DNA of 43,466 nt from Escherichia phage fBC-Eco01: sequence record OM272052.1. One strand, written 5' to 3'. Positions 13,544 to 38,043 of this stretch are shown one piece after another. Below the pieces are notes generated by a model. It made no database searches. It worked only from the letters and a program-made list of their open reading frames with translations, and was not told where the DNA came from. Within the stretch, counting starts at the first letter, position 1. The number at the start of each line of letters is the position of its first letter. The position numbers and the translations under genes are program-made.

Positions 13544-13733
13544 TGTTAACTCTCTTAAATCGGGCTATGCCTGACTCGTTAATGCTGCCTATTTCAAAGA
13601 AGCTGCGATATTTAGGCGAATACATTCTTACGTCGCCGTTCTCTAGGGCGACCCCTTCATATACAGCGCCTACTTCGAATCCATTTTTCTCCGCGTACGG
13701 ACTCACATCGGTGCATTCATACATATCTTTCAT
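13533..13733 (-). CDS. hypothetical protein (accessory operon gene 3)
   Basis: 66 aa; ATG overlaps upstream stop (translational coupling); RBS GGAG. Confidence 0.5.
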   Translation of the reverse strand: MKDMYECTDVSPYAEKNGFEVGAVYEGVALENGDVRMYSPKYRSFFEIGSINESGIARFKRVNSDK

Positions 13734-14860
13734 CCCAGCATCTCCGGTGAAATAGTTAAACGTGCGACCTCGCCATATTCGGCACTATAGGTAATTACAT
13801 TTGCGCTACGGCCTGACATCCATCCACCGCGCGAGGCGTAGGCGTCTTTAGCCGCCAGGGTGCGGTGTTGCTCAACAATCATGTTACGGCTTTCTACAAT
13901 CTTCTGGTGGTGCAGATGGCCTACGTGGGCGTAGCTGTAAACACTCTCGCCGAACGCTTTACGGAACTTGGCAATCATTACCGGTTCGATAGCGTCGAAT
14001 CGCGCCTTATGCCCGTGGTGAAAGAACAGCGTAGTTTTGCCGTGTTGGACCATCTTGTAAACATCCGGCGACGTATCGACGAACACACGCGGCTCATTGT
14101 CGTACAGCGTACTAAACATCTCAGCTAACCAAATCATTCCGCTTTCGTCGTGGTTCCCTTGCACGATAAGCAAGCGAACAGATTTATGCTTAACCAGCGC
14201 CATGTCAACAACACGTCGTACCATACGAATCATGTAGCGCACCAGTTTCTGATAGCGAGTATCGGCGTCCAATACATGACCACTCGCTGGCGTAACCGCA
14301 TCCAGACTATCGAAGTGCGCGAAGTCACCCAGCAGGTTAATAACCCCAGTTCCTGCATCTGGTGCTTTCTGAAACGCCGCATCGAACCATCGGGAGAACA
14401 GGTCTTCCGCAATCTTCATATCCCAGTCGTCGCCGCTCTCGTCAGCCCAGGCCAGCATACCAAGATGGAAATCAGATACCGTGTACAGATTGAGTAGTTT
14501 ATCGTCGCGTTTGGCTCGAGTCGCTTTAACCGGCGCAACTGGCGTAATCTCCGACTTCATTCCTTCGATCACGGCTTTCATTAACTCGACCTGACGTTCG
14601 GCGTCGGTGTCTGTCTTAACCCATTGCAACTTAGTGTTGCCGAACTCGTCCACCAGTGACGACGTTCCTTTAATTTTGTAGCCGTCCGGGACAAGATGGC
14701 TAACGTCACGACCGTGACCTACGCCTTTCTTCGCCAGCTTCGCTTTACGGATACGAATAACTCGGTCTGAGATGCCGTATTTACGGGATATGTCGATAAT
14801 CTTTGTTCCGGCGTTCAATTCTTCCTGTAACTGTTCGTCGGTTATTTTCTTCCGGGCCAT
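13730..14860 (-). CDS. HTH domain - calcineurin-like metallophosphoesterase fusion protein
   Basis: 376 aa; N-terminal helix-turn-helix-like segment (IIDISRKYGISDRVIRIRKAK); phosphoesterase motifs in order DFH, GDFAHFD, GNHDE, GH, GHLHH; RBS GAGGAAG. Confidence 0.75.
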   Translation of the reverse strand: MARKKITDEQLQEELNAGTKIIDISRKYGISDRVIRIRKAKLAKKGVGHGRDVSHLVPDGYKIKGTSSLVDEFGNTKLQWVKTDTDAERQVELMKAVIEGMKSEITPVAPVKATRAKRDDKLLNLYTVSDFHLGMLAWADESGDDWDMKIAEDLFSRWFDAAFQKAPDAGTGVINLLGDFAHFDSLDAVTPASGHVLDADTRYQKLVRYMIRMVRRVVDMALVKHKSVRLLIVQGNHDESGMIWLAEMFSTLYDNEPRVFVDTSPDVYKMVQHGKTTLFFHHGHKARFDAIEPVMIAKFRKAFGESVYSYAHVGHLHHQKIVESRNMIVEQHRTLAAKDAYASRGGWMSGRSANVITYSAEYGEVARLTISPEMLG

Positions 14861-14898
14861 GCTTACTTCCTCGTGTTTAGGATTTGTCCTATACTAGC

Positions 14899-15090
14899 TC
14901 ACTTCTCTTTGACATTCGAGTTGCAAGCCCAGATTAAAATAAATACCCACGGCAGCAGAACCCAGCCGAGAAACAGATTAGCCATGAATATCGCCAGTTT
15001 CGCTTTATGTCCGCGCATATGGGCCACTAAAAACGGGATAAAATAAACTAAAACGATAATGATTAAGAAGAACATAGTAATACCTGTCAT
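14899..15090 (-). CDS. superinfection immunity-like small membrane protein (Imm-like)
   Basis: 63 aa from ATG 15090 with RBS AGGAG; two hydrophobic helices with RGHKAK...NLFLGW...PW motif as I recall it for the Imm-like family. Confidence 0.5.
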   Translation of the reverse strand: MTGITMFFLIIIVLVYFIPFLVAHMRGHKAKLAIFMANLFLGWVLLPWVFILIWACNSNVKEK

Positions 15091-15131
15091 GGTGTAGCTC
15101 CTGTTTGAGTTAACATTGTTGGTGTAAGTGA

Positions 15132-15160
15132 ATAGTATCCTATTATGTTGGGGTGCGCAA
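15132..15160 (-). promoter_or_regulatory. conserved promoter element copy C (TTGCGC-N17-TACTAT, minus-directed)
   Basis: minus-strand reading TTGCGCACCCCAACATAATAGGATACTATTCAC, 28 nt identical to copy D. Confidence 0.5.
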
Positions 15161-15268
15161 GTAATGTGATAGAATAATTTTGCGCCTAGTGTCGCACACG
15201 AAAAGCGGGTGGTTCCCGTCTGGCGCATTTACCATTAACCTGTAACCTCTTAACCAAAGGATTAAAGA

Positions 15269-23234: not shown

Positions 23235-25259
23235 ATGTCAAGCGGATGCGGTGACGTTTTAAGCCTGGCGGATTTACAAACCGCCAAAAAACACCAGATT
23301 TTCGAGGCTGAGGTTATCACCGGTAAATCTGGTGGCGTTGCAGGTGGTGCAGATATCGACTATGCCACTAACCCGAACACCGGCCAAGTTCAAAAAACTA
23401 TGCCAGCCATTCTGCGCGATATTGGGTTCGAACCAGCGTCTTTTGATTTTACATCTGGCGGTACTCTTACCCCGAACGACCGTAACAAGGCGGTTTTATG
23501 GCCTATGGCGGATGGTGGTGATGGCGACTGGTATTACTGGGAGGGCACGCTGCCGAAGGTCATACCAGCCGCGTCTTCACCGTTAACGGCTGGAGGTATT
23601 GCCGAGGGGGCATGGCGGCCTGTGGGGGATATCACGCTGCGCGAAGAGCTTCTTGAGTCTGTTTTGGTTATGAATGGTGCTCGATTTGCCCTTCGAGACA
23701 TTCATTCTGCGCTTGATTTTGCGGGTGTAGTTGCTGATGGCGTGACTGATGTGACTACCGCACTGCAAGCGGGCATCGATTCCCTGCCCGCCGGTAGCGC
23801 TCTGCTGTTTACAGGCGGGACATTCCTGTTCGATAAGGTCACGATTAGCAAGCCACTCACTGTAACCGGCGACGCAGAGATGGTTCACAATGGGTTTCGA
23901 ATTAAAACCAGTAACTTCACATCCACCCTGCTTGGCAAGCAGCAAAGTCGAACCTACGGCAGCCAATCACGTTGTTTTGAAATACGTGCGTATGAAGATG
24001 CTGCTGATTACGAAAACATCAAGATCCTGTTCAACGACATGGCGGGGTTCTTCTATTCGACTGATTTTCGCGGTCGTGAATATTCAGCCGCACCAAACGA
24101 CCCCGCCAACAGAGTGGTAAAAAATACGCTGATTATGGGTTGCACCTCAACGGCCCCCGCCGGTCAGGCTGCTGGTAACTACCAGCACATAGGCATAACT
24201 AACGCCAAGTGCATAGGTAACTCAGCCTATAACGGAGTAAACGCCTCAAGCTACAACTTTATAAACGGCAACGGGTATCTGATAGTTACCGGGAATTATG
24301 ACGACAACAACACCTACGGTTCGCTTGAGATAGAAAACAACCTAGTTTCTCATGCGACGATCTCAGGCAACACATTCAAAAAGCAGTTGTGGGTAGACGA
24401 TACAAGCAACGTCTCCATCGTCGGAAATACCGTGTCAGACAGGATTTTCCTTACTGCGCAGAGTAATGATACCGATAACATTACTGTGTCGGGGAATACC
24501 TGCACGAGGCTGTCAGCCACCACATTTGGACCGATTGAGGAGCAAATAGGGAGGCATAAAGGGATTCATGTCATTGGTAATACGTTCTATGGTGAGGCGG
24601 GGGTTAATGATATCTTTGCCGATGGTCACGTTGATTGCATCACTATTGAATCCAATGCATTGAATGGGGTCGATAGTAACGCCATCGCATTGGTGCGCAG
24701 CCCAACATGTAACCACATGGTGCGTAATAACCGCAGTAAAGTGACTCGCGCCTTGGCAATCTCCGGGTCTGGTGGCCGGGTTGTTGAGTATGGCAACGAC
24801 AATATAACCCTTTCTGGTACGTCCGAAAGTCATCACATCTCAAACCTCATGCAGCCAAGTTTAGATTTTCTTGACCTGCCTGGGCGTTACCTGCACAGCA
24901 CTAAGTACACGGGGTCTATCGCGCCGCTCGGCTCTGCCTCCCTATCCCTGCCAATCCCAGATAGTGCTGGGCTGGCATTCAGGGGGGTGTCACTGTGGGT
25001 GATGATAAGGGATGCCGTGACCAATAATATATCTATCTACAGAATTGATGGTGTATACAAAGCCGTTGGGGCTTCGATACAGCTGTCTTTTAGTACGCCC
25101 TATTCGGCATTTGGTGTCGACACTGCATCGATTAATGTTGCTAATAACGCTAGCACATCGAATAGCATCAATATCCTTGTGTCTAACACTCATGTGACGA
25201 AAATATTACAGGTTACTGTTATGCCTGAAGTGACAAGCAAACTTGGGACTGAGGAGTAA
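23235..25259 (+). CDS. tail fibre / tailspike protein with parallel beta-helix-like repeats
   Basis: 674 aa, RBS AAAGAGGA; recurring xGNT/xGNx repeats (ISGNTFKK, VGNTVSD, VSGNTCTRL, VIGNTFYGE) typical of pectin-lyase-fold tailspikes. Confidence 0.6.
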   Translation: MSSGCGDVLSLADLQTAKKHQIFEAEVITGKSGGVAGGADIDYATNPNTGQVQKTMPAILRDIGFEPASFDFTSGGTLTPNDRNKAVLWPMADGGDGDWYYWEGTLPKVIPAASSPLTAGGIAEGAWRPVGDITLREELLESVLVMNGARFALRDIHSALDFAGVVADGVTDVTTALQAGIDSLPAGSALLFTGGTFLFDKVTISKPLTVTGDAEMVHNGFRIKTSNFTSTLLGKQQSRTYGSQSRCFEIRAYEDAADYENIKILFNDMAGFFYSTDFRGREYSAAPNDPANRVVKNTLIMGCTSTAPAGQAAGNYQHIGITNAKCIGNSAYNGVNASSYNFINGNGYLIVTGNYDDNNTYGSLEIENNLVSHATISGNTFKKQLWVDDTSNVSIVGNTVSDRIFLTAQSNDTDNITVSGNTCTRLSATTFGPIEEQIGRHKGIHVIGNTFYGEAGVNDIFADGHVDCITIESNALNGVDSNAIALVRSPTCNHMVRNNRSKVTRALAISGSGGRVVEYGNDNITLSGTSESHHISNLMQPSLDFLDLPGRYLHSTKYTGSIAPLGSASLSLPIPDSAGLAFRGVSLWVMIRDAVTNNISIYRIDGVYKAVGASIQLSFSTPYSAFGVDTASINVANNASTSNSINILVSNTHVTKILQVTVMPEVTSKLGTEE

Positions 25260-25320
25260 ATCAAATTGCATTTAAAACCATCCACATCCTAGGCCGTGGC
25301 GACTGGCGCACAAATAACTA

Positions 25321-25345
25321 AGCCCTCATAAGAGGGCTTTACTTT
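25321..25345. terminator. intrinsic terminator between convergent tail fibre and replication genes
   Basis: AGCCCTC-ATAA-GAGGGCT hairpin with T-rich flanks. Confidence 0.5.
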
Positions 25346-25469
25346 ACCTTAGACACCTATCAAGCCGTAGCGCGCCAAGCACCCCGCCAACGCGCACGAT
25401 AAAACCCCTACGTTTTGTTTCAGCCCATGTGAAAATACCGGTTTCAGGGCCGTATGATACCTTGCTCAT
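25344..25469 (-). pseudogene. HNH homing endonuclease N-terminal remnant (41 codons)
   Basis: ORF MSKVSYGPETGIFTW... overlapping helicase stop (ATGA); N-terminal motif matches the two intact HNH genes but the HNH core is absent. Confidence 0.4.
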
Positions 25470-26896
25470 TTCTTACTCCTACGTTTCATATACTCAAGGA
25501 GGATATCCTGCACCTGTTTTTTCTCGTCTGTGCGTGAAGTGACAACAGAATCCAACGTATCTTTAGCAATAATCTTGTAGATAAAAACAGGCCGATTATA
25601 CCCCGATTGCTTTTGCCGTACTGGCCCTATGCGCTCTACCACCTGTAAATAGTGTTCGAGGTTCCACCCCTGACTGAAAAACGCCATATGATGGCCGCCG
25701 TCTTGTAGCGATATGCCGTGGCCGGCTGACGCGGGGTGGACGCATAAGATTTCAATTTCACCACGGTTCCACGCTTCCATCTGCTTATTACCCTTCGCAC
25801 CTTTGGCAAACGCCTGTGCTTGTGGGAATCGCTTAAGGATACGCTCCAGTTCGTGCTTAAACTGATAGGCCACCAGTAACGGCGCGCCCTGTAGCTCCTC
25901 AACAATGGACTCAAGCGCATCAAGTTTCGTGTCGTGCACTTTCTCCCAGTCTTTCGATGCCTCGCCGTCCGGCCCGGACACATACACGGCACCGGATGCA
26001 ATCTGCAAACACTTCGACGTCTTCGCTGCGGCGTTAGCGGCTTCAACTTCTCCGCTCTCCAGTTCTGCGAATAGCTTCTCCTCCATATCTATGTACGCCT
26101 GACGCGCTTTCTTCGGCAGGTCGATTTCGACCGGTACAATAATCGGCGCTTCGCAACCGAACCACTCGGCGGCGTCAATCGTGAGACTAATGTCCTTCAT
26201 CTTCTGATGAATTTCATTATCCGCACCCGGGCGGGCGTGGTACTCGCGCGCCATAGCCGATTTGCCTTTCTGTACCGAGTTAAACCAGCGGTCGGTGAAT
26301 GCTGTGTACGAAGAACCGAGGCGCTCACCCGCGTCGATAAACCAGTTCTGGCCCCACAAGTCCTTGAGGCCGTTTGGTGATGGTGTACCTGTCAGGTTGA
26401 TGAAACGCTTAACCTTACCGAACGCCACTTTACTAAGTGCCTTTGCCCTCTTGCTACCACCTGAACGGCTGCGGAACGATTTCAGCTTCGTGCTCTCATC
26501 AGCAACGATAACCGTAAAAGGCCAGTCGTCTTTGCCGTAGTAGTCAATAAGCCACTCGATAACTTCGTAGTTCGCGCACACCACGTTAGCGTCCGACTCC
26601 AGCGCCGCGATGCGGCGCTTCTCTGAACCGGTCGCATCTACGACGCGCAGACACGGGAAACCCCACTTAGTTTGTTCTGCGGGCCACGTACCGGAGGCAA
26701 CGCGCAACGGGGCGAGTATCAGCACTCGGTCGTCGTCCGTAAGTTGACCGTTGCGGAACAGGCGGTTAAGAACCCACATTGTCGACGAGGTCTTGCCGCC
26801 GCCCATACCGCACCAGATATTGCAACGTGGGTGCTGTAGCATGAACGAAGTCATGAGCTTCTGGTACTCTCGACGGATAAATTTAGACATGTTCAA
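25466..26896 (-). CDS. superfamily II DNA helicase (SNF2/DEAD-like)
   Basis: 476 aa; Walker A GMGGGKT, DExx-like VADEST motif. Confidence 0.8.
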   Translation of the reverse strand: MNMSKFIRREYQKLMTSFMLQHPRCNIWCGMGGGKTSSTMWVLNRLFRNGQLTDDDRVLILAPLRVASGTWPAEQTKWGFPCLRVVDATGSEKRRIAALESDANVVCANYEVIEWLIDYYGKDDWPFTVIVADESTKLKSFRSRSGGSKRAKALSKVAFGKVKRFINLTGTPSPNGLKDLWGQNWFIDAGERLGSSYTAFTDRWFNSVQKGKSAMAREYHARPGADNEIHQKMKDISLTIDAAEWFGCEAPIIVPVEIDLPKKARQAYIDMEEKLFAELESGEVEAANAAAKTSKCLQIASGAVYVSGPDGEASKDWEKVHDTKLDALESIVEELQGAPLLVAYQFKHELERILKRFPQAQAFAKGAKGNKQMEAWNRGEIEILCVHPASAGHGISLQDGGHHMAFFSQGWNLEHYLQVVERIGPVRQKQSGYNRPVFIYKIIAKDTLDSVVTSRTDEKKQVQDILLEYMKRRSKK

Positions 26897-27087
26897 TCCT
26901 TAACGTAGAGTACCAGCTCTTTACGCCCGAACGCGGTAACGTTGCCTGTTACATCTTCGATAACCAGTTTACCGTTTGACTCGACGAACACAGTATCAAC
27001 GGCAACAGGCTGGCGGGTCTTAACGTTGAAAATCATGTCGCCAGGTACGATGTCACGCGCGGGTTTGCGGTCATATTCGTGTTTCAT
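26893..27087 (-). CDS. hypothetical protein
   Basis: 64 aa; ATGA overlap with helicase; RBS AAGGA. Confidence 0.5.
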   Translation of the reverse strand: MKHEYDRKPARDIVPGDMIFNVKTRQPVAVDTVFVESNGKLVIEDVTGNVTAFGRKELVLYVKD

Positions 27088-27117
27088 TTCTCAATTCCTT
27101 ATATTGTTGGTGTAGGA

Positions 27118-27402
27118 CTAACTATAATAGTTTGCTATTATGTCGTCAACCTGTTTGAACGAGCCGACGACAAAAACATTTGCACCACGTTTACGCATCC
27201 GTTCGTGTTCGCGTAACTGGTGTGGGTCTGGCTTCGTGTTTTCGTCTTTCTTGACCTCAACGAACCAGATGATGCCGCCGGGTAGAAGCACTAAGAGGTC
27301 GGGAGCGCCCACTCTATTTTCGTACGACAATTTGCGTACGAGGCCCCCCAGGGCCTCGAATCGCTCTTTTGCGTATTTCTGAATCTTGCCCTCCGGGGTC
27401 AT
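27118..27402 (-). CDS. VRR-NUC domain nuclease
   Basis: 94 aa; motif PDLLVLLPGGIIWFVEVKK characteristic of VRR-NUC (PD-(D/E)XK-type) proteins. Confidence 0.65.
   Translation of the reverse strand: MTPEGKIQKYAKERFEALGGLVRKLSYENRVGAPDLLVLLPGGIIWFVEVKKDENTKPDPHQLREHERMRKRGANVFVVGSFKQVDDIIANYYS
27121..27149 (-). promoter_or_regulatory. sigma70 consensus-like promoter (TTGACG-N17-TATAGT, minus-directed)
   Basis: minus-strand reading TTGACGACATAATAGCAAACTATTATAGT; overlaps the 3' end of the VRR-NUC gene. Confidence 0.5.
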
Positions 27403-27551
27403 GAGCGCAGAATCCAGGTGATGAAAGCCCCGCCGAGAACGGCAACACCAACAAACTTAAAGAACAGGCCATAATAGAACATCGCAGCTATTCCCGCACT
27501 GAGTAACAGTGCGAGCATGGTTACTATCGTCCAAAATACAAACATTGTCAT
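27399..27551 (-). CDS. small membrane protein (about 50 aa, two predicted TM helices)
   Basis: internal ATG 27551 chosen (ATGA overlap with upstream ORF); strongly hydrophobic. Confidence 0.4.
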   Translation of the reverse strand: MTMFVFWTIVTMLALLLSAGIAAMFYYGLFFKFVGVAVLGGAFITWILRS

Positions 27552-27739
27552 AACAACGGCTCCGCATCTGGGTTTCGCAGGAAGTACGCTTGATAGATGT
27601 CGTGTTCTGAATAGTAAACACCTTTGTGCGTACACCCGGTGCAAGCATCGCTAAAGAACCCATCGCCCATTACCATGATAAATTCCCACTCCGGCATATC
27701 TACTAACGCTTTGGTGTTGCTAAAACATTCTTCTTTCAT
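27548..27739 (-). CDS. hypothetical protein
   Basis: ATG 27739 with RBS AGAGGGG at 8 nt; 63 aa. Confidence 0.4.
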   Translation of the reverse strand: MKEECFSNTKALVDMPEWEFIMVMGDGFFSDACTGCTHKGVYYSEHDIYQAYFLRNPDAEPLL

Positions 27740-27825
27740 AATATGCACCCCTCTCGTTTTGTATGCTCAATCCCGCAGCGCGGACAGATTCGGCAGTCTT
27801 CTTCGTATAACCAGTAAATTTTCAT
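27736..27825 (-). CDS. small Cys-rich peptide (29 aa, CxxC...C zinc-ribbon-like)
   Basis: MKIYWLYEEDCRICPRCG...; stop overlaps next ATG. Confidence 0.3.
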   Translation of the reverse strand: MKIYWLYEEDCRICPRCGIEHTKREGCIL

Positions 27826-27953
27826 TCCAGCACCCACAGATAAATTGCGATGAACATACCTAATACGGCTACCATCATGCCGTATTGGCCCTCGTGACAA
27901 TAGACACCGGCGGCGAATCCCGCCAGTACCGCGATAATCAGTTTACTTAGCAT
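27822..27953 (-). CDS. small hydrophobic peptide (43 aa)
   Basis: ATG 27953 overlapping the DNA polymerase 3' end; two hydrophobic stretches. Confidence 0.3.
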   Translation of the reverse strand: MLSKLIIAVLAGFAAGVYCHEGQYGMMVAVLGMFIAIYLWVLE

Positions 27954-30141
27954 AACGCTTCATCTCCGCGCCTTCCGCTACAAGAGGGAACCCCTCCGCC
28001 CACTCTGGCAACGCACACATTAATTTTTCCAGTTCAGGCACCGTGTAATCCGGCGTATCTGGAGTTTCACATACCAGTTCATCGTGTACCGAAAGCACGA
28101 TGGGATACCCGCCACCCTCAACATTAATCATCGCATACGCAAGTAAATCACGGCACAGCGCCTGAACAATGTTTTCGCAGGCCTTGCCGCCGTGTGTGTA
28201 CAGGGTAGTCCATTGACGGGTTAACTGGTTTTCGCCCTGATACTTGATTCGCACATTCGTATTTACCCGCCCGTCTTCGTCTGTTTCCTTTGTCACACTA
28301 ACGCCGATTCCCGGATACGAGAGGATGCGACCCGACGGCAACTCCATACACAACCACCAGCCAGGAACCTTCCTGCCCGACGAATCAAATTCTACGGTAC
28401 GCCATATGCGGATAGCCCTTTCACCATTCCGGCGCAAGTGTGCTCCCGCCCAAAATTCACGACCAGGATTTCTTACCGCGGCTAAAATACCGTCTTTGAG
28501 GTCGCGCCAGAACGCTACTGTTTCCGGGTGTGACTCGCGCCACATACGCTTGATTGCATCGCAGGTGCGCCACACTTTCTTGTCCAGAATATACGACGGT
28601 CGGTCGTCCTTTTCACCTGGATGCGGGGGGCGCTTGGCTTCCTGGATGCGCGCCCACTCGTACCCGCGTGCAGTGGCCGACCAGATATGGTCCGGGAATG
28701 TACCGTCCATTGTTTTAGCCATCTCAATAAGGTCGAGGCCTAAGTTTTTGGCGAACGTAACGAATGCTCCGACGCCCCCCTCGTAGCCGAGGCCCAGTTC
28801 GCATGCTTTGCCTATCTGTCTGATTTCCTTAAAGTTTTTCTTAATATCGTCAGGGTCCATGCCAAACATCTTACCTGCGGTTACGCAATAAATATCCAGT
28901 CCGGCACGGAACGTATCGAGCGCGGTTTCTTCTCCTGCTAACCACGCTAACCCACGACCTTCGACGTTAGAGTAATCAGCTACGACAAACTTGTGCCCGG
29001 CTTCCGGTATGATGCAGCTACGGACCGTCGATGCCGTCAGCTTGGCTACGTCAAATCGGCGGTGAGCACGACCCTTAAGTAACGCTGAAATGCCTTTATC
29101 CAGTTCATCATCGTGATAGTAACCGCGCGCCAGGTTCTGCGGCTGAAAGCCTTTACCCGCCCATCGCAGAGTGCGTTTTGCCCCGCCGTACTGCAAGCAA
29201 CCACGACGGCGGTCGTCCGACGAGCGACCCAGCAGCAGCGGGTTATATTTCGTCGATGCTGTAGACGCGGCCCCGAGGCGCATTTCGATAATTGTGCGCG
29301 CGTCGTCAGGTAAATCATCGTCCGCCAACAAGTCATTCAGCGTTGACTTCTGCGCGTTGTGGATGCGGTGCGCAGGGGCGAGTTCACGCAAAATAGGCAG
29401 AAAGTCCTTACCGGTAAGTGAACCGCCGTATTTGCGTTGGGCTTCTTCCTGTAACTGTGCTTTGTGTTTCTCCACGGCTTCAATCGCGGCTTCCGCCAGT
29501 GCGACGTCAACCTTAAACCCGCGGTCGTTGATTAACTGGTCCAGTTCCAGTACACGGTCCTCAAACTCGGAGTTACCCCAACGCGGCAGCTTATGGAAGA
29601 CTTCACGCATTGCGGTGATGTCGCTCACGGCGTACTTGATGAACAGCGCCCACTCGTCAGGGTGTGTTTCTGCGGTGTAGCGGCGGATTTTGTAGTTCTT
29701 CGGTGTAGGTTTAGAGAAACGCTGAATCAGCGCCTTGCCGCGTTTATCTTTCGCATTGTCAGCGGACACGCCCAGCACTTCGCACAACGCATCAAGTGAC
29801 CCCGGCAGCGCGTGACGAAACGCCCAAATCATTGTATCAATGGTGTTGCTTACCGGAATATCAAAGTCCCAACAGTGCTTCATGATGAGCCTGTCGAACA
29901 TTAAAAAGTTATGGCCTACGATTTTCATACGTCCGCGCATAACATTACGGAGTGCAACGCGGAGGCTTATCGGCATTACTGGTTCGGAAGTGCAATCCCA
30001 TACTTCTACAGGACCGTCATCAACGGCATATGTACAAATTATAACCTCGGTCGTTGGATGCTCCGCGTACGCGTACGACCCGACTTTCTTTAAGTCTGCT
30101 TCGGAGAATGTCTCAGTATCCAGGTACAATAAACTAGTCAT
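27943..30141 (-). CDS. DNA polymerase, family A (Pol I-like) with 3'-5' exonuclease domain
   Basis: 732 aa; exonuclease motif LYLDTETFS; polymerase motifs DYSNVEGR, RQIGKACELGLGYEGG and VHDELV. Confidence 0.9.
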   Translation of the reverse strand: MTSLLYLDTETFSEADLKKVGSYAYAEHPTTEVIICTYAVDDGPVEVWDCTSEPVMPISLRVALRNVMRGRMKIVGHNFLMFDRLIMKHCWDFDIPVSNTIDTMIWAFRHALPGSLDALCEVLGVSADNAKDKRGKALIQRFSKPTPKNYKIRRYTAETHPDEWALFIKYAVSDITAMREVFHKLPRWGNSEFEDRVLELDQLINDRGFKVDVALAEAAIEAVEKHKAQLQEEAQRKYGGSLTGKDFLPILRELAPAHRIHNAQKSTLNDLLADDDLPDDARTIIEMRLGAASTASTKYNPLLLGRSSDDRRRGCLQYGGAKRTLRWAGKGFQPQNLARGYYHDDELDKGISALLKGRAHRRFDVAKLTASTVRSCIIPEAGHKFVVADYSNVEGRGLAWLAGEETALDTFRAGLDIYCVTAGKMFGMDPDDIKKNFKEIRQIGKACELGLGYEGGVGAFVTFAKNLGLDLIEMAKTMDGTFPDHIWSATARGYEWARIQEAKRPPHPGEKDDRPSYILDKKVWRTCDAIKRMWRESHPETVAFWRDLKDGILAAVRNPGREFWAGAHLRRNGERAIRIWRTVEFDSSGRKVPGWWLCMELPSGRILSYPGIGVSVTKETDEDGRVNTNVRIKYQGENQLTRQWTTLYTHGGKACENIVQALCRDLLAYAMINVEGGGYPIVLSVHDELVCETPDTPDYTVPELEKLMCALPEWAEGFPLVAEGAEMKRYAK

Positions 30142-30607
30142 GGCAATAAAATTCCTTGTGCAGTTTTTCTCTTAATTTCTTTACGGCGCTTTCTGCTTCT
30201 TCAAGAGTTCCGTAGCTACCAGCGTTATAGCTTTTGTAGTTAAAATGCACACGCCCGTAAAATCGGTTGCCGTTTTTAACCACTCCCTTAACTCCGGTTC
30301 TAGCTCCCTTATTTTTAGCGTTTCGCACATTATCAGCGGTTGTTGCTTTCCTTAGGTTAGAAATCCTATTGTCTAACCTGTCACGGTTTATATGGTCAAG
30401 AGGCCCATCGGGCCATTCACCGTACTCGAAAAACCAAGCAAGCCTGTGGGCCATGTAATATCTACCCATATAAGGTATGCGCCAGTATCCACTACTATTG
30501 ATGCATCCAGCGATGTCTCCGGGTTTTCCTCGTCTGTACGTAGGTTGTATCCATGTGAATACCCCTGTCTCTCGGTCGTAGCTTAGAAAATCTTTTATAT
30601 GTTCCAT
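30134..30607 (-). CDS. HNH homing endonuclease with AP2-like DNA-binding domain
   Basis: ATG 30607 with RBS GGAG; motifs AHRLAW, HINRDRLDNRISNLR; C-terminal GVKGV...NRFYGRV AP2-like segment. Confidence 0.7.
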   Translation of the reverse strand: MEHIKDFLSYDRETGVFTWIQPTYRRGKPGDIAGCINSSGYWRIPYMGRYYMAHRLAWFFEYGEWPDGPLDHINRDRLDNRISNLRKATTADNVRNAKNKGARTGVKGVVKNGNRFYGRVHFNYKSYNAGSYGTLEEAESAVKKLREKLHKEFYCHD

Positions 30608-30623
30608 TCTGACTCCGGTAAAA

Positions 30624-30641
30624 AGGCCCAATGATGGGCCT
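30624..30641 (-). terminator. intrinsic terminator (minus-directed) between SSB-like gene and HNH gene
   Basis: AGGCCCA-ATGA-TGGGCCT hairpin followed on the minus strand by TTTTACC. Confidence 0.5.
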
Positions 30642-30661
30642 TAGTTAAATTGATTCAGATA

Positions 30662-31288
30662 TTAGCGGCGGCGACGTTCGCGGCGCGGAGCTTCATCTTC
30701 TTCGTCATCTTCCAGGTCGTCGACGCTTGCCGCGACTTTAGAACCGCCAAACGCTTTACCTTCGCCGACGTATTTAATCGCCAGCAGATTAACACCGAGA
30801 ACTTTGTATTTCTGGCTGAACCAGATTTCAATGCTTACGTTAGCGACGCAGCCGCTGTAAACCTGTTCACCTTCAATCTGCTCGCCGTCTACATTGAAGT
30901 CCTGCTCTACCTGAGTCTCGCCTTTTTTAGAGGTTACAATCAGTGGCTGTTTCTGAGCTTTCGCTTTGAAGTAGAAGCCTTCCGGGAAGTCTTCAAACGG
31001 ATTGTCGCGCTCGGCAATGTCCTTAATCGCGCATTTATCCATGTGCTTACCTTCGCCGTAGTTGGACTTCATCCATTTCTCGGCGGCGGCTGCACCTAAC
31101 GCTTCTTCAACTACAGCGTAAACAGTGTCGTAGAGCGCATCGATTTGAGCATGGTCAGACGGCAGGATGATAGTCGCGCTGTACTGGCCTTTAGTGATTG
31201 AGCCATCATCGTTTTCACGGTCTTTTTCACGTTCGAATACGTTAACCCAAGCAGTGTTTACTTTACGCAGATTTAATTTCAGTCCCAT
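30662..31288 (-). CDS. DUF2815-like putative ssDNA-binding protein
   Basis: 208 aa; strongly acidic C-terminal tail DDLEDDEEDE as in SSBs; genomic context next to DNA polymerase and DUF2800 nuclease. Confidence 0.55.
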   Translation of the reverse strand: MGLKLNLRKVNTAWVNVFEREKDRENDDGSITKGQYSATIILPSDHAQIDALYDTVYAVVEEALGAAAAEKWMKSNYGEGKHMDKCAIKDIAERDNPFEDFPEGFYFKAKAQKQPLIVTSKKGETQVEQDFNVDGEQIEGEQVYSGCVANVSIEIWFSQKYKVLGVNLLAIKYVGEGKAFGGSKVAASVDDLEDDEEDEAPRRERRRR

Positions 31289-31341
31289 TTGATTTCTCGC
31301 TTTTCAGTTTACTCCGGGGAGCTGCCCGGCCAGTGATTAGA

Positions 31342-31370
31342 ACTATAATAGCTAACTATTCAGGTGTCAA
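31342..31370 (-). promoter_or_regulatory. sigma70 consensus promoter (TTGACA-N17-TATAGT, minus-directed)
   Basis: minus-strand reading TTGACACCTGAATAGTTAGCTATTATAGT upstream of the SSB-like gene. Confidence 0.5.
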
Positions 31371-31603
31371 CCCTTCCAGCCAGTTATTTTCTCAACTATG
31401 GTTATGTATACGTCAGGCCACTTCAAATTACGCACCCACTCAACTTCTTTGGCATACACCAACTCCTCTAGTTCTATTTTCCTGCACTTAAATGCGGTAT
31501 ACACGAAAAACGGAAGAAGCATTATGGCCAGCGGCAGTATTAGCGCGTGATAAGTTAAAAACGCCACAAAACCACCAATTACTCTGAACATTTTACGAAT
31601 CAT
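31367..31603 (-). CDS. small membrane protein
   Basis: ATG 31603 with RBS GAGGAGG at 7 nt and ATGA overlap; hydrophobic N-terminal half. Confidence 0.4.
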   Translation of the reverse strand: MIRKMFRVIGGFVAFLTYHALILPLAIMLLPFFVYTAFKCRKIELEELVYAKEVEWVRNLKWPDVYITIVEKITGWKG

Positions 31604-32841
31604 TCTAAATCCTCCTCTGTTGCCTGATTCCACTCAGGACGTTTGTCGTCTGCCGTTGCGACACATGGTGCGCCCGGCTTACGGGTAATGAAGTCTTTCA
31701 GTTCTTCTTCCGGTATAATTTTAACCGCTTCGGTAGGCGTCATGATAACTTCTTTAGTCAGCTTGTCGCCGTAGAGTTCTGCCACTTTCTCCGCGTCTTT
31801 CCACGCACGATTACCCGGCCTACCTTCAACCAGCTTGTACCCCGGAACTTTCTTACCGGAATGCAGCGAGGCAGCCATAGCTTTTTCAACCTTTTCGATG
31901 TGCTGGCGCAACAACGGCAACTTCTCATACTCAGCTACGAGTTGCTCCGGCGTCAGTTCCAGCGCAAAGTCGTCCTCCAGTTCTTCCGCCAGCACCGCGT
32001 TAACGGTTTTTGTACGCGCTGCGCACTGTTCAGAGAACCGGCACCACTGACAACCATCGACCGACGGCTTAAAGTCCGACGCTTTCAGGTTCTTCTTGCC
32101 GCGGGAATACGCATCTAACGCTAACAGTGCCCGTTTCCGCGCAAACTTAGCGAACAGTTCCAGACCTTCAACCGAGATGTCCCACTCCGACGCACCACCA
32201 GCGTACGGCTGGAAGATGACCAGACGAACCGTTGTTACGTTATAGCGTCGCTTGAGTCTGCGATAAACACCGAGAGCATAGAGCATAAGCTGCTTGTTCT
32301 CTTTCGCTTCGACACGATGTCGTCCTGTTTTCAGGTCGCCGATAATTAGCATGTGCTCTTCGGTGTTCGCCAGTTCCTGGACGGCAACAAGGTCAGCGGT
32401 TCCGAACGTCTCGACACCTTCGTAACCAGGATGCAACACCTCAGTAAGATTGACACGCATTTCCAGCTTAGCGTAAGTCGCTACATCGATAATCGCTTTG
32501 CAGTAGTCTGTGTACTTGCGAACCTGCTCAATCATATCCGCCGTAATCAGTACTGCGCCTTTCATCGGACTGATTAGCGCCTTAATCTGGCCTTTACCCT
32601 CATCCAGCACGTAGGCACCGACTTCACGTTCTAACGGCAACGCAGTGCCTTTGATGTACTGGTTTAAGTGCATCTCAGCTATGGTGTGCATGGCTGTTCC
32701 TAATACCGCGGCTTTACCTGACGTGTTAGGAATATCTTTTTCACAGGCCAGTGATGCCGCGCAACTTAGCCAACGTTTACTACTGGAAGGTGATAACAAT
32801 GAATGTTCGTCGTTACTCCCGCTTCTGCCCTTAATTTTCAT
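31600..32841 (-). CDS. DUF2800-like PD-(D/E)XK nuclease with Cas4-like Cys cluster
   Basis: 413 aa; N-terminal Cys (RWLSCAASLACEK) plus C-terminal CQWCRFSEQC arrangement typical of Cas4/RecB-type Fe-S nucleases. Confidence 0.65.
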   Translation of the reverse strand: MKIKGRSGSNDEHSLLSPSSSKRWLSCAASLACEKDIPNTSGKAAVLGTAMHTIAEMHLNQYIKGTALPLEREVGAYVLDEGKGQIKALISPMKGAVLITADMIEQVRKYTDYCKAIIDVATYAKLEMRVNLTEVLHPGYEGVETFGTADLVAVQELANTEEHMLIIGDLKTGRHRVEAKENKQLMLYALGVYRRLKRRYNVTTVRLVIFQPYAGGASEWDISVEGLELFAKFARKRALLALDAYSRGKKNLKASDFKPSVDGCQWCRFSEQCAARTKTVNAVLAEELEDDFALELTPEQLVAEYEKLPLLRQHIEKVEKAMAASLHSGKKVPGYKLVEGRPGNRAWKDAEKVAELYGDKLTKEVIMTPTEAVKIIPEEELKDFITRKPGAPCVATADDKRPEWNQATEEDLE

Positions 32842-32913
32842 TTAATAGCCCCGTGATTTTTATGGAATCCTAACTCTTTTTCTGCATTTTTACGCGCCAC
32901 AACGGCGTCGTCT

Positions 32914-33351
32914 TTATTCTCGAAATATCCAAGACCTATGAACGAGCTTTCTACTCTTATATATATATGCCCGCCACAACTTACGAGTTTTGCACCAGCT
33001 TACACCAGTAACGCCGCTGGTGTTGTTAGATGCTAAAGACATATTCTTGTGATTTCCGGCGCTACTCACCTTCCGCAGATTGGTAATTCGATTGTTTCTC
33101 CTGTCGTGGTCAATATGGTCTATTTGCTCTCCGGGCTTTAGTAAATCATCTGGGTTACAAAGGTCCCATATAACACGATGCGCTTTACGCACAACGCCGA
33201 GCACCTTAACTTGAGTGTAGCCATGAACGTCGTTGGACCCCGCCTCCTGTCCAGCCTTAACTTTGTCGGAAGGTGATATCTTCCAATACAATTTCCCGGT
33301 ATCAGGGTCGTAGTCAAAAACTTCATGCCAATTCATACCCTGTTCTCCCAC
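32914..33351 (-). CDS. HNH homing endonuclease
   Basis: 145 aa; motifs YDPDTGKLYW, AHRVIW, IDHIDHDRRNNRITNLR. Confidence 0.7.
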   Translation of the reverse strand: MGEQGMNWHEVFDYDPDTGKLYWKISPSDKVKAGQEAGSNDVHGYTQVKVLGVVRKAHRVIWDLCNPDDLLKPGEQIDHIDHDRRNNRITNLRKVSSAGNHKNMSLASNNTSGVTGVSWCKTRKLWRAYIYKSRKLVHRSWIFRE

Positions 33352-33605
33352 TGATCAATTAAATGTCGTGTCTGGTGATGACAGTGCATAGCCCACCCAT
33401 ACATCGACTCGAAGACATAAAAGTCAGGCTTGGCAAAAGTCGTGCGCTTAATCTGCGACACATGACGGCCTATATCTTTAGGCCGTGGTACTTTACCTAA
33501 GTACGCCATCTCTTCCATCTGGCGCGCACCGGATGGTGCACGCAATAGCCATAGCGCCTCTGTGTCATCCCGCCTGTCTACGGCGCGGTAGAGTTGGTAA
33601 ATCAT
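33333..33605 (-). CDS. hypothetical protein
   Basis: 90 aa; His/Cys cluster HCHHQTRH. Confidence 0.45.
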   Translation of the reverse strand: MIYQLYRAVDRRDDTEALWLLRAPSGARQMEEMAYLGKVPRPKDIGRHVSQIKRTTFAKPDFYVFESMYGWAMHCHHQTRHLIDQWENRV

Positions 33606-33648
33606 AAATCCGACCCTCAGTTAAAGCGGCCCGAAGGCCGCGAGATAG

Positions 33649-34146
33649 TTATTCTTCTTCGAAATACTTGTTCTTGATTGCCGTCAGGCGTTCCAGGTAC
33701 TCGGCCAGGTCTTCGTCCTTAATCGCGGCAATCTTCATCTTCTTACCGGTGAACTCTTCCAGCAGTTCATCAGACTCGTCACACGCGGCATCGCTCGGGC
33801 CTTCGTTAATTGCATCGTCGATAGCCTGAATCTGGTCACGCAGAGATTGGTAATCTACTTCTTTTTTCTCTTCTTCCGGCTCTGGCGTCGGTTCCTCTGC
33901 TTTAGCTTTACGCGTCTTGCGTTTCGGCTTCTCTTCCTCCGCAGGTTTAGTGTCAACGACGTCTTCACCTTCAACCGTGATTTCTTTTGCTTCTTCGGCG
34001 CACTCGCCCGCCGCTTTTTTGGTATACACTACTGTCTCTACTTCCAGCGGCGCATCGGCATGAACAACTTGTTTTGCACTGTTCGCAGCAATCAGTTCAT
34101 GCGCAACTACGAAACGTTCCAGTAATTTTAAGAATTGGTCTAACAT
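33649..34146 (-). CDS. hypothetical acidic protein with central KR-rich patch
   Basis: 165 aa; RBS GAGGAGA at 7 nt; first gene behind strong promoter. Confidence 0.5.
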   Translation of the reverse strand: MLDQFLKLLERFVVAHELIAANSAKQVVHADAPLEVETVVYTKKAAGECAEEAKEITVEGEDVVDTKPAEEEKPKRKTRKAKAEEPTPEPEEEKKEVDYQSLRDQIQAIDDAINEGPSDAACDESDELLEEFTGKKMKIAAIKDEDLAEYLERLTAIKNKYFEEE

Positions 34147-36908: not shown

Positions 36909-37196
36909 CCGGTTTGCTAACTCACCCAGCAAATTTTTATACTCTTCAAAATAATCCGCAACCAAATCATCGCCGAAATAGAAGTCGATATACTCGAGAT
37001 TATCTCTTACGTTAAGCGACGCCGACATGGTGCTTAGCTGGCGTAAGCTAATTAGCTTCATTTCTGTTTCTACGCAGAAAGGCCGGTAGGTATCAAGGTG
37101 GCAAGAGATGTTGAAGCATAGGGCGAACTCTCCAACCACGGAGTGAACCATATACACTTCGTTTTCTGCTTTATTGTGGAAAATTACACCTTTCAT
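36906..37196 (-). CDS. hypothetical protein
   Basis: 96 aa; ATGA overlap with upstream HTH gene. Confidence 0.5.
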   Translation of the reverse strand: MKGVIFHNKAENEVYMVHSVVGEFALCFNISCHLDTYRPFCVETEMKLISLRQLSTMSASLNVRDNLEYIDFYFGDDLVADYFEEYKNLLGELANR

Positions 37197-37375
37197 TTCA
37201 CATTCTCCTTAATCCACGCTTCAACTTTATTACGGTCAAATGTTCCTGGTAAACGGCGACCCATAACTTTAATACAGCAGTCAGGGAATTTACCACTGCG
37301 CAACCAGTTATTAATTGTCTGGCGTGTCACCCCAATACGCTCAGCTACTTCATTCTGTGTCATGTAATGTTGCAT
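37193..37375 (-). CDS. helix-turn-helix DNA-binding protein (AlpA/Xis-like)
   Basis: ATG 37375 with RBS AGGAGA at 8 nt; HTH segment TQNEVAERIGVTRQTINNWLRSGKFP. Confidence 0.55.
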   Translation of the reverse strand: MQHYMTQNEVAERIGVTRQTINNWLRSGKFPDCCIKVMGRRLPGTFDRNKVEAWIKENVK

Positions 37376-37396
37376 TTCTATATCTCCTGTTTGTTT

Positions 37397-37425
37397 GGTG
37401 GAGCTGAGTATAGGATAGCGGGGAT
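37397..37425 (-). promoter_or_regulatory. candidate promoter for leftward replication operon (TTGCTT-N17-TATACT)
   Basis: minus-strand reading TTGCTTTTACATCCCCGCTATCCTATACT, about 20 nt upstream of the HTH gene. Confidence 0.45.
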
Positions 37426-37472
37426 GTAAAAGCAACCAATCCCTGCTATATTTAATCTTTACAAAAAAGTTA

Positions 37473-37502
37473 TTGAAAGTTCTTGACACATGTTTGTATA
37501 AT
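37473..37502 (+). promoter_or_regulatory. strong sigma70-like promoter (TTGAAA-N18-TATAAT)
   Basis: perfect -10 TATAAT, good -35; no ORF downstream before terminator at 37702. Confidence 0.5.
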
Positions 37503-37508
37503 GGTTTT

Positions 37509-37729
37509 GGGACTTGTATATATTACGGAGTTGACGAACCCTCCCCGAGGGATTCGTCAACCCCTCCCAGACAACTGAGATGCTTGCCTTGGGGTTTAAG
37601 GATAAGTGTATCTAAATCTCATTTAAAGAAGTAACCCGCTGAAATATCTACTGTTTCTTAATGTGCCGTAGATTCGCAACCGTAAAAATGTAACGATTAT
37701 TGGGCAGGCTTAAGGCCTGCCCTTTAGTT
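37509..37729 (+). ncRNA. candidate ~220-nt non-coding RNA
   Basis: bounded by TTGAAA-N18-TATAAT promoter and GGGCAGGC-TTAAG-GCCTGCCC terminator; 5' region holds a 14/15-bp hairpin; no RBS-led ORF. Confidence 0.3.
37702..37729 (+). terminator. intrinsic terminator
   Basis: 8-bp GC-rich stem GGGCAGGC/GCCTGCCC followed by TTTAGTT. Confidence 0.55.
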
Positions 37730-37794
37730 ACCAAGTAATAAGAATAAAGGCACAACCTTCCCTAAAGAATCACAACGGCAACGTAACTAATCTC

Positions 37795-37823
37795 TTGCAC
37801 ACCCCAACATAATAGGATACTAT
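37795..37823 (+). promoter_or_regulatory. conserved promoter element copy D (TTGCAC-N17-TACTAT, plus-directed)
   Basis: TTGCACACCCCAACATAATAGGATACTATTCAC upstream of the rightward small-gene cluster. Confidence 0.5.
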
Positions 37824-37857
37824 TCACGTATCGGGACGAGACAGAGGAGTGAGGGTT

Positions 37858-38043
37858 GTGTTTAAGAAGGGTCAGTTGGCGAAAACTAAACGCGGCGGAC
37901 AGTACGTAATAGTTACCCAGGACGAGGATGAATTTAGTATCGCTGTAGACGTATGGGGGCTTGTACGAAAGAAACATGGTTACGCTTTCCGCGATAATTT
38001 AAAACTCATCGGCAACAATTTTAAATTCAAAGGGGCGAAGTGA
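37858..38043 (+). CDS. hypothetical protein
   Basis: GTG 37858 with RBS GAGGAG at 8 nt; 61 aa. Confidence 0.5.
   Translation: MFKKGQLAKTKRGGQYVIVTQDEDEFSIAVDVWGLVRKKHGYAFRDNLKLIGNNFKFKGAK

Follow-up and report, generated by a model that had tools for sequence, protein, structure and literature searches.

Escherichia phage fBC-Eco01 (sequence record OM272052.1) is an E. coli phage of the genus Kagunavirus (Guernseyvirinae), and its DNA of 43,466 nucleotides, the whole of which was analysed and is called the window hereafter, holds three homologous loci of HNH endonuclease type in three different states: intact upstream of the DNA polymerase gene (site D), frameshifted next to the Cas4-like nuclease gene (site E) and truncated after the helicase gene (site A). 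The three very probably belong to a single, common family of phage homing endonuclease genes of the free-standing kind, and alignment with relatives links each of them to a diverged stretch of the adjoining essential gene, which has sharp borders and a conserved motif at its end. Most probably, this is the pattern classically left by free-standing homing endonucleases as they invade and decay, the copies having reached different points of that cycle and their flanks having been co-converted and presumably made resistant to cleavage. The finding is an ordinary and already well-described feature of this phage group, and the element is of a known kind. The initial annotation had placed three HNH loci in the replication module, two of them intact; all three are real and homologous, but the copy at site D is the single intact one and that at site E has lost its frame.

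Domain make-up of the family and state of each copy

Open reading frames are present at all three loci on the minus strand. Proteins of the family begin with a Y..TG...W module, followed by an I-HmuI-like nuclease core of the HNH_3 type and, at the C-terminus, by an AP2-like domain for DNA binding. The family profile matches I-HmuI (1u3e) over the nuclease core with E=2.5e-6 and the AP2 domain of WRI1 (7wq5) with E=0.0018. The shared N-terminus described in the initial annotation was borne out by alignment, in which Y..TG...W is invariant across nine sequences, and the site-A peptide matches the site-D N-terminus within the window with E=0.001; the similarity of site A to HNH N-termini is far above chance. 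Against the curated Pfam cut-off for HNH_3 (PF13392) of 24.8 bits, site D scores 56.1 bits (E=2.8e-15) and site E 46.4 bits (E=3e-12), while AP2 scores remain below the curated cut-off of 33.3 bits (16 bits in the site-E copy and 24 bits in gp54c of phage fEg-Eco19). Because both copies match HNH_3 strongly, the ICP1-like IPA-HNH sub-family was rejected, and they appear to be canonical HNH_3-AP2 genes. A tblastn search of the rest of the window with four family members gave no other HNH_3 copy or remnant, nor did Pfam scans of odd-strand and low-GC open reading frames in the window reveal additional HNH copies or remnants. The helicase, polymerase and nuclease frames of the window are continuous and the endonucleases occupy intergenic slots; intein- or intron-encoded endonucleases were rejected because no host gene is interrupted in the window.

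The site-D gene (30134..30607, minus strand) encodes a free-standing HNH_3 endonuclease of 157 amino acids with an AP2-like C-terminus and overlaps the polymerase ATG by 8 nt (ATGACTAG). Its HNH_3 match and the catalytic His-Asn-Asn string (DH..-..NR..NLR-..N..N), DHINRDRLDNRISNLRKATTADNVRN, agree with the initial annotation of an intact HNH gene upstream of the polymerase, and the gene is intact. As to the AP2-like domain assigned there, the C-terminus aligns with the paralogues, but Pfam AP2 was not detected in the whole protein or in its C-terminal 57 amino acids at E up to 10, so the label rests on paralogue homology.

The site-E frame as listed (32914-33351) contains the catalytic string (DHIDHDRRNNRITNLRKVSSAGNHKN) and had been taken as an intact gene lying after the Cas4-like nuclease gene. 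Neither description holds, since on the coding strand this copy lies upstream of the nuclease and since tblastn with an intact relative shows that homology resumes in a second frame from 32960 to 32850. The gene likely starts at ATG 33336, not at GTG 33351; the present open frame is 33336-32914, whereas the ancestral frame runs to a TGA at 32840-32838 which overlaps the nuclease ATG, giving an ancestral extent of 32838..33336 on the minus strand, with ATGA overlaps at both ends, as delimited by two-frame tblastn and alignment with phage BCH953P1. The frame is lost at a TA-dinucleotide run (32958..32968) which is 4 nt longer than in BCH953P1 by pairwise nucleotide alignment, and the change of repeat length shifts the frame inside the C-terminal AP2-like domain and removes most of that domain. 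After restoration of the frame, the protein aligns in one piece with the intact BCH953P1 homologue at 70.7% identity. Among known copies of the Jersey gp46 sublineage, that in the window is the most complete.

At site A, a remnant of 41 codons starts at an ATG overlapping the helicase stop (ATGA). The initial annotation was right in calling it a remnant of an HNH N-terminus, but only codons 1-23, MSKVSYGPETGIFTWAETKRRGF (25399..25469, minus strand), are HNH-derived, by nucleotide identity to the 5' end of fEg-Eco19 gp54c, a 161-aa HNH homing endonuclease; the other 17 codons with the stop (25344..25398, minus strand) are unrelated and matched nothing in the phage and E. coli collections. The 41-aa product has no Pfam match, and HNH_3 in particular is missing because the nuclease core is absent. 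At 25399-25480 the DNA is 98.8% identical (E=2e-32) to fEg-Eco19 where its helicase ends and its HNH gene starts; 77 records, fEg-Eco19 included, match the remnant DNA at 90-99%, and codons 1-23 are 95-99% identical to the beginning of intact, annotated HNH genes that occupy site A in 77 phages. The fEg-Eco19 alignment breaks at 25398/25399, and homology ends at 25399 in all 77 database matches. HNH homology might seem to continue to an 11-mer (GCGGGRTGCTT) shared about 20 nt onward, but this was not accepted as the junction: the bases in between are wholly different, and all 77 matches end at 25399.

Directly 3' of the remnant lies a terminator hairpin (25320..25339, minus strand; terminator scan, fold and alignment; -16.2 kcal/mol, z=-2.4), which stands in place of the canonical terminator and the conserved 138-nt gene of relatives. 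The break in the remnant falls at the right-hand border of a tailspike cassette that has been replaced, and is not a gradual erosion. DNA of 23600-25400 has no near match in phages and was not found in 5,426 E. coli genomes; a distant search returned only 64-67% matches to Aeromonas phage tailspikes, covering part of the tailspike. The loss at site A presumably occurred in the same recombination that installed this foreign receptor-binding cassette, either by deletion of an intact fEg-Eco19-type gene or by homing which, in a genome without the downstream homology arm, ended illegitimately 70 nt into the gene.

Distribution among relatives and linked tracts

Every intermediate state is represented among the more than 450 relatives with sequenced genomes, and sites A, D and E are each polymorphic, being occupied, empty (or taken by an alternative) or decayed. 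At site A, 53 records carry a full-length HNH gene, other records carry internal-deletion or 5' remnants, and other Kagunavirus relatives carry several unrelated small open reading frames or nothing. Site D has three alleles, namely an empty 59-nt spacer, a 156-nt open reading frame and the HNH gene, and the last is present at this position in only five phage records (KMB36, EM1, VIPECOTPH05A, VIPECOMC04 and P AB-2017; 93-97% DNA identity), while 123 other records match essentially the flank alone. The short site-D gene annotated in KMB36 was rejected as a case of decay; it is an annotation choice, because the full 157-codon frame is open. Site E is empty in KMB36 and EM1, intact variants are found in BCH953P1 and EcoPhCCP1, and Jersey keeps a remnant with an in-frame 67-aa deletion.

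The sharpest linkage is seen at site D. The upstream border of the insertion is a conserved terminator hairpin 3' of the ssDNA-binding gene (30620..30642, minus strand; alignment and fold; -15.2 kcal/mol, z=-2.9), immediately past which HNH-bearing and HNH-free relatives diverge in alignment. On the other side, a tract of about 240-254 nt at the 5' end of the polymerase gene (29902..30141, minus strand), bordered at the ExoII motif HNxxMFDR, is only 54-73% identical between the two groups; fixed differences number 74 in alignment columns 1-240, 4 in columns 241-300 and none in columns 301-1200. This tract is at least 92.5% identical in exactly the five HNH-bearing records, whereas the next best full-length match is 72% (308 records), so that the HNH gene and the tract are linked in 5/5 vs 0/303 records.

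Similar tracts adjoin the other two copies. The helicase 3' tract co-inherited with the site-A gene (25466..25721, minus strand), whose border lies at the conserved ASAGHGxxLQ motif, is 97-100% identical to fEg-Eco19 vs about 90% for the upstream helicase, and 63-80% identical to HNH-free relatives; only 7/454 records match it at 90% or more. At site E, the first 90 nt of the nuclease gene contain 22 fixed differences between the window with Jersey and six other relatives, against 4 scattered over the remaining 510 nt, which delimits a linked 5' tract of about 72 nt (32770..32841, minus strand). The initial annotation had proposed that selfish endonucleases are gained and decay around essential replication genes, to be checked by their presence or absence at the same junctions in relatives and by divergence around putative cleavage sites in endonuclease-free relatives. 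The occupied, empty and decayed sites, and the linked tracts in polymerase, helicase and nuclease, support this central idea.

Homing, decay and other explanations

From the population patterns alone we infer homing, which would proceed as follows. In a mixed infection, the enzyme would cut or nick the endonuclease-free allele of the neighbouring gene near the conserved catalytic motif at which the tract ends. Repair from the carrier genome would then bring in the endonuclease gene and, by co-conversion, the flank between gene and cut, in which the target has a form that resists cleavage. In a lineage fixed for this flank, selection would no longer maintain the endonuclease, and it would decay.

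The linked tracts are 25-45% diverged, which is more than a few immunity mutations, and could stem from ordinary mosaic exchange with a distant lineage, the HNH genes having merely hitch-hiked. The HNH genes would then be passive cargo of ordinary mosaic recombination, their flanks the borders of modules from a distant Guernseyvirinae lineage, and the nucleases would not be driving their own spread here; a tract identity of 54-73% is what DNA from a distant relative should give, and Guernseyvirinae genomes are mosaic throughout, including swaps of methylases, small open reading frames and tailspikes. This account is nevertheless quite improbable, since three independent sites repeat the pattern, each time right beside an HNH gene and with a conserved motif at the end of the tract, since the linkage at site D is perfect, and since I-HmuI, a characterised homing enzyme, is a homologue of the family. 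Within the preferred reading of homing and decay, it is unlikely that the site-A remnant is the scar of abortive homing, not of decay in place. A genome which already had the foreign tailspike cassette, and so was without the downstream homology arm, would have been cut in the helicase 3' end and repaired from a fEg-Eco19-like donor, with synthesis ending illegitimately 70 nt into the HNH gene; if true, endonuclease breaks beside the convergent tailspike gene may seed host-range cassette exchange in Guernseyvirinae, and the window genome would have immunity at three targets for the cost of a single working endonuclease.

Two of the copies might also be more functional than is supposed here. 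The site-E lesion could be a sequencing error in a dinucleotide repeat, as such repeats are error-prone, or an assembly error, or it might be bypassed by slippage, which would leave the phage with two working endonucleases; it is the sole lesion in an otherwise open frame of 166 codons whose catalytic motif and ATGA overlaps at both ends are kept. We consider an intact site-E gene unlikely, because BCH953P1 differs by 4 nt, unlike the single-base errors of homopolymers, and because decay took place independently in the Jersey copy of this lineage. Programmed frameshifting at the TA run was rejected on the latter ground and because programmed slippage is known from homopolymers and heptanucleotides, whereas TA repeats are not known to serve in this way. 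Far less credible still is a functional small protein encoded by the 41-codon frame, such as a retained DNA-binding hairpin or an anti-homing factor. Its ATG is translationally coupled to the helicase stop, the invariant Y..TG...W is kept and a 5' remnant survives at site A in at least one further genome (F12013), but the last 17 codons of the frame have no homologue in any collection searched, Pfam finds nothing in it, and no remnant product is conserved at site A, because the remnants in other genomes differ in length and end point.

Known systems and consequences

A family of free-standing phage homing endonucleases with HNH_3 and AP2 domains was noted by Magnani et al. 2004, according to the account in PMC10448857. 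The window copies differ from it in nothing essential, sharing the intergenic position by replication genes and the sporadic distribution, and add the combination of an intact, a frameshifted and a truncated copy; with the genes annotated as "HNH homing endonuclease" in Jerseyvirus and Kagunavirus they share size (157-166 aa) and apparent domain order. Homing of free-standing endonuclease genes with co-conversion has been described (PMC2988022, PMC2790892), and SegB, SegF, SegG and MobE of phage T4 are examples of intronless homing, marker exclusion and co-conversion (PMC2988022, PMC2790892, PMC2330249). As in T4, a free-standing gene lies between conserved genes, its flank is co-inherited and the presumed target is inside the conserved neighbour, some way from the insertion, so the asymmetric tracts of the window fit the T4 homing model. 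However, the Seg proteins are GIY-YIG enzymes, unlike HNH_3, MobE belongs to another HNH sub-family, in a class with a zinc-finger at the C-terminus instead of AP2 (PMC10448857), and activity has been demonstrated for the T4 enzymes, whereas that of the window copies is presumed. The closest solved relative of their nuclease core is I-HmuI, an HNH nicking endonuclease of Bacillus phage SPO1 (PDB 1u3e), which sits in a group I intron of the polymerase gene and has different DNA-binding modules, while the window genes are free-standing. Phage ICP1 has IPA-HNH endonuclease genes, with HNH and C-terminal AP2 domains, clustering near DNA polymerase genes, and a natural frameshift parts the nuclease from the AP2 domain in its gp115/gp116 pair (PMC10448857), as at site E; the ICP1 cores are, however, too divergent for Pfam HNH_3, which the window copies match.

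The finding carries little weight beyond this phage group, but it offers a textbook picture of the cycle of invasion, fixation, degeneration and loss, with its intact, frameshifted and truncated copies side by side in a single genome. The tract borders predict cut positions at the polymerase ExoII motif, the helicase ASAGHGxxLQ motif and the nuclease N-terminus; in an HNH-free polymerase allele, the site-D cut is predicted near nt 230-250, around GTGTGGCACAACGGCTCAATGTTCGAC. For annotation, the site-E gene should be entered as a pseudogene and the 41-codon frame as a remnant, and in engineering of Kagunavirus marker exclusion around the HNH sites is to be expected in mixed infections. Homing endonuclease genes and inteins have been noted as the basis of Jerseyvirus mosaicism (PMC8425127). 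Two further insertions of relatives are absent from the window; one is an intein (Hint+LAGLIDADG) in the helicase, and the other lies in frame in the polymerase and is 894 nt long.

Two HNH genes upstream of the nuclease and the polymerase

The region 25000-33700 matched 456 phage records in a nucleotide search of the phage collection. Nucleotide identity is highest, about 90%, with Kagunavirus (Guernseyvirinae) phages of Escherichia, and the Salmonella Jerseyvirus phages come next. The minus strand encodes the replication genes, which converge on the plus-strand tailspike gene. In the order of transcription they are the primase-helicase, small genes, a 90-aa gene, an HNH gene (site E), a DUF2800/PD-(D/E)XK Cas4-like nuclease, an Enc34-type ssDNA-binding protein, an HNH gene (site D), a family A DNA polymerase, small genes, VRR-NUC, a 64-aa gene, an SNF2 helicase, and a 41-codon ORF (site A) followed by a terminator.

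The site-D gene (30134-30607, minus strand) is intact, as the initial annotation had stated: its 157 codons are open, it matches Pfam HNH_3 (E=2.8e-15), the catalytic string is kept, and it has its own Shine-Dalgarno sequence and an 8-nt overlap with the polymerase start. A Pfam scan did not detect AP2 in this protein; its C-terminus aligns with those of the paralogues, whose family profile matches the AP2 domain of WRI1 (E=0.0018) and, by its HNH core, I-HmuI (E=2.5e-6). The gene occurs in only five phage records, in the same position each time and with 93-97% identity; for the other 123 records the match is essentially confined to the flank past the conserved terminator hairpin after the ssDNA-binding gene. 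The slot is occupied by a 59-nt spacer (K1ind2, EcoPhCCP1), a 156-nt ORF (fFiEco02, Jersey; loci L005 5988-6143 and L002 about 230-390) or the HNH gene. In KMB36 (L003 7077-7550) it is annotated from an internal Met as 111 aa; this is an annotation artefact and not decay, since the full 157-codon frame is open.

The site-E gene (32914-33351, minus strand), also taken to be intact, is a pseudogene. An intact paralogue aligns to it in two frames (33312-32938, then 32960-32850), and the frame is lost in a TA run (32958-32968) with four extra bases relative to Kagunavirus BCH953P1, whose 163-aa protein is the closest intact homologue (the restored protein is 70.7% identical to it). The restored gene, in which no defect besides the TA-run change was found, starts at an ATG (33336) that overlaps the stop codon of the 90-aa gene upstream and ends at a TGA (32840-32838) that overlaps the nuclease ATG. 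As encoded, the product is 140 aa from the ATG, keeping the nuclease core and losing most of the AP2-like domain. Jersey gp46, in the same slot, belongs to the same lineage (94% identity); its N- and C-termini are joined in frame into a 67-aa protein, and both ATGA overlaps are kept. In KMB36 and EM1 the site is empty and the two flanking genes overlap each other directly; in EcoPhCCP1 and others it holds different HNH variants. Compared with EcoPhCCP1, UPWr_S2-4 and horsemountain (window 33239-33351), the first 75-110 nt are 85-89% identical and the remainder just about 50% at the protein level. Site-A variants follow the same pattern, with 5' ends alike and the rest diverged. The conserved 5' ends suggest module swapping within the endonuclease gene or a constraint on the 5' end.

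The truncated gene at site A and the tailspike

The ATG of the site-A ORF (25344-25469, minus strand) overlaps the helicase stop (ATGA). The helicase-end/HNH-start junction in 77 phage records is 90-99% identical to 25399-25480; fEg-Eco19, whose gene here is annotated as a 161-aa HNH homing endonuclease, reaches 98.8% (E=2e-32). The HNH homology of this presumed N-terminal remnant is therefore real, but it is shorter than had been described, ending at 25399 (codon 23/24) in all matching records, and its origin is different. Near matches to the last 17 codons and to the terminator hairpin (25320-25339) were absent from the phage collection and E. coli genomes. In relatives, a canonical terminator and a conserved 138-nt gene separate the slot from the tailspike, and the window has neither. 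From the homology stop, the unmatched DNA beyond it and these two missing elements, we infer a sequence of events in which a block of about 1.76 kb was replaced, bringing in a new tailspike receptor-binding part, and its right border cut through the HNH gene.

The 138-nt gene encodes a coiled-coil protein (phrog_5915) and is present in six of the seven Kagunavirus relatives inspected; the sparse annotation of the seventh, K1ind2, lists no small genes there. It is missing from 25260-25343, so it is dispensable or replaced in this phage. The tailspike N-terminal anchor (first 140-400 nt) is of the usual Kagunavirus type. For the distal three quarters (23640-25259, plus strand, about 1.6 kb) no near nucleotide match was found in 50,697 phage records and 5,426 E. 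coli genomes, the sole matches being Aeromonas phage tailspikes at 64-67%; judged by its sequence, this part is a novel receptor-binding module of unassigned specificity.

The slot itself is highly variable: VIPECOTPH05A has nothing there, other Kagunaviruses have unrelated ORFs of 177-195 nt, 53 records have a full HNH gene, and further records have internal-deletion or 5' remnants, F12013 retaining only about 45 nt.

Linked tracts and proposed homing

Each HNH gene is linked to a diverged stretch with sharp boundaries in the adjoining essential gene. In the first 240 alignment columns of the polymerase, HNH-bearing and HNH-free phages are 54-73% identical with 74 fixed differences; columns 241-300 add four, and columns 301-1200 none, between-group identity there equalling within-group identity. 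The border falls exactly at the ExoII motif HNxxMFDR. Across the whole collection, exactly the five HNH-bearing records are at least 92.5% identical in this tract, the best of the remaining full-length matches, among 308 records, being 72%. Over the last ~255 nt of the helicase, the window shares 97-100% identity with fEg-Eco19 (about 90% upstream of the tract) and 63-80% with HNH-free phages, and the border is at a conserved ASAGHGxxLQ motif. The first ~72 nt of the nuclease are common to the window and Jersey only, and the first 90 nt contain 22 fixed differences. On the upstream sides there is no such tract, so the linkage is asymmetric and directed into the essential gene.

Sporadic free-standing ORFs beside conserved genes, asymmetric co-inherited flanks ending in conserved motifs and varied decay (frameshift, internal deletion, truncation) are the marks that free-standing homing endonucleases leave. 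Such an enzyme would cut the endonuclease-free allele some distance inside the neighbouring gene, and repair would then copy the endonuclease gene together with the intervening resistant flank. The T4 Seg and Mob enzymes are known to act in this way (PMC2988022, PMC2790892, PMC2330249); here the mechanism is proposed by analogy, and both cleavage by these HNH proteins and its target positions are putative. Because the tracts are very diverged, simple hitch-hiking of the HNH genes on mosaic exchange keeps some place as an explanation, though an improbable one. The mosaicism of Jerseyvirus has been attributed to homing endonucleases and inteins (PMC8425127).

With homing as the preferred reading, the proposal of gain and decay of selfish endonucleases around replication genes was right in outline (polymorphic slots, linked tracts, decayed copies), with the states of the genes partly misjudged. 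Earlier work has already described genes of this HNH+AP2 type, their clustering next to polymerase genes and a natural frameshift separating the two domains (PMC10448857). The copies are of a known kind, routinely annotated in this phage group, so the novelty is low.

Other insertions

The VIPECOTPH05A helicase (L004 1461-3926) contains a Hint+LAGLIDADG intein near a P-loop-like GMGGGKT motif; the corresponding point in the window (26778-26792) has none. The KMB36 polymerase (L003 3989-7084) has an 894-nt in-frame insertion, in which Pfam recognises nothing, absent from the window at 28801-28803; the fEg-Eco19 polymerase gene is similarly enlarged and its homology breaks at the same position. 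Two more HNH_3-AP2 insertion sites, upstream of the helicase and upstream of VRR-NUC, are occupied in relatives (L008 2774-3271 and 3767-4264; L003 3288-3785; L001 4985-5482). Both are empty in the window, at a gene overlap (26893-26896) and a small membrane ORF (27399-27644).

Elsewhere, two opposite-strand genes (13730-15228, minus strand) lie within the plus-strand structural module, one of 376 aa with a weak metallophosphoesterase match below the Pfam cut-off and the other of 109 aa with a superinfection-immunity (Imm) domain (E=3e-13). The pair looks like a moron-type insertion. The lowest G + C content of the window (0.425) is at 37001-38000, adjoining an HTH regulator gene (37193-37489).
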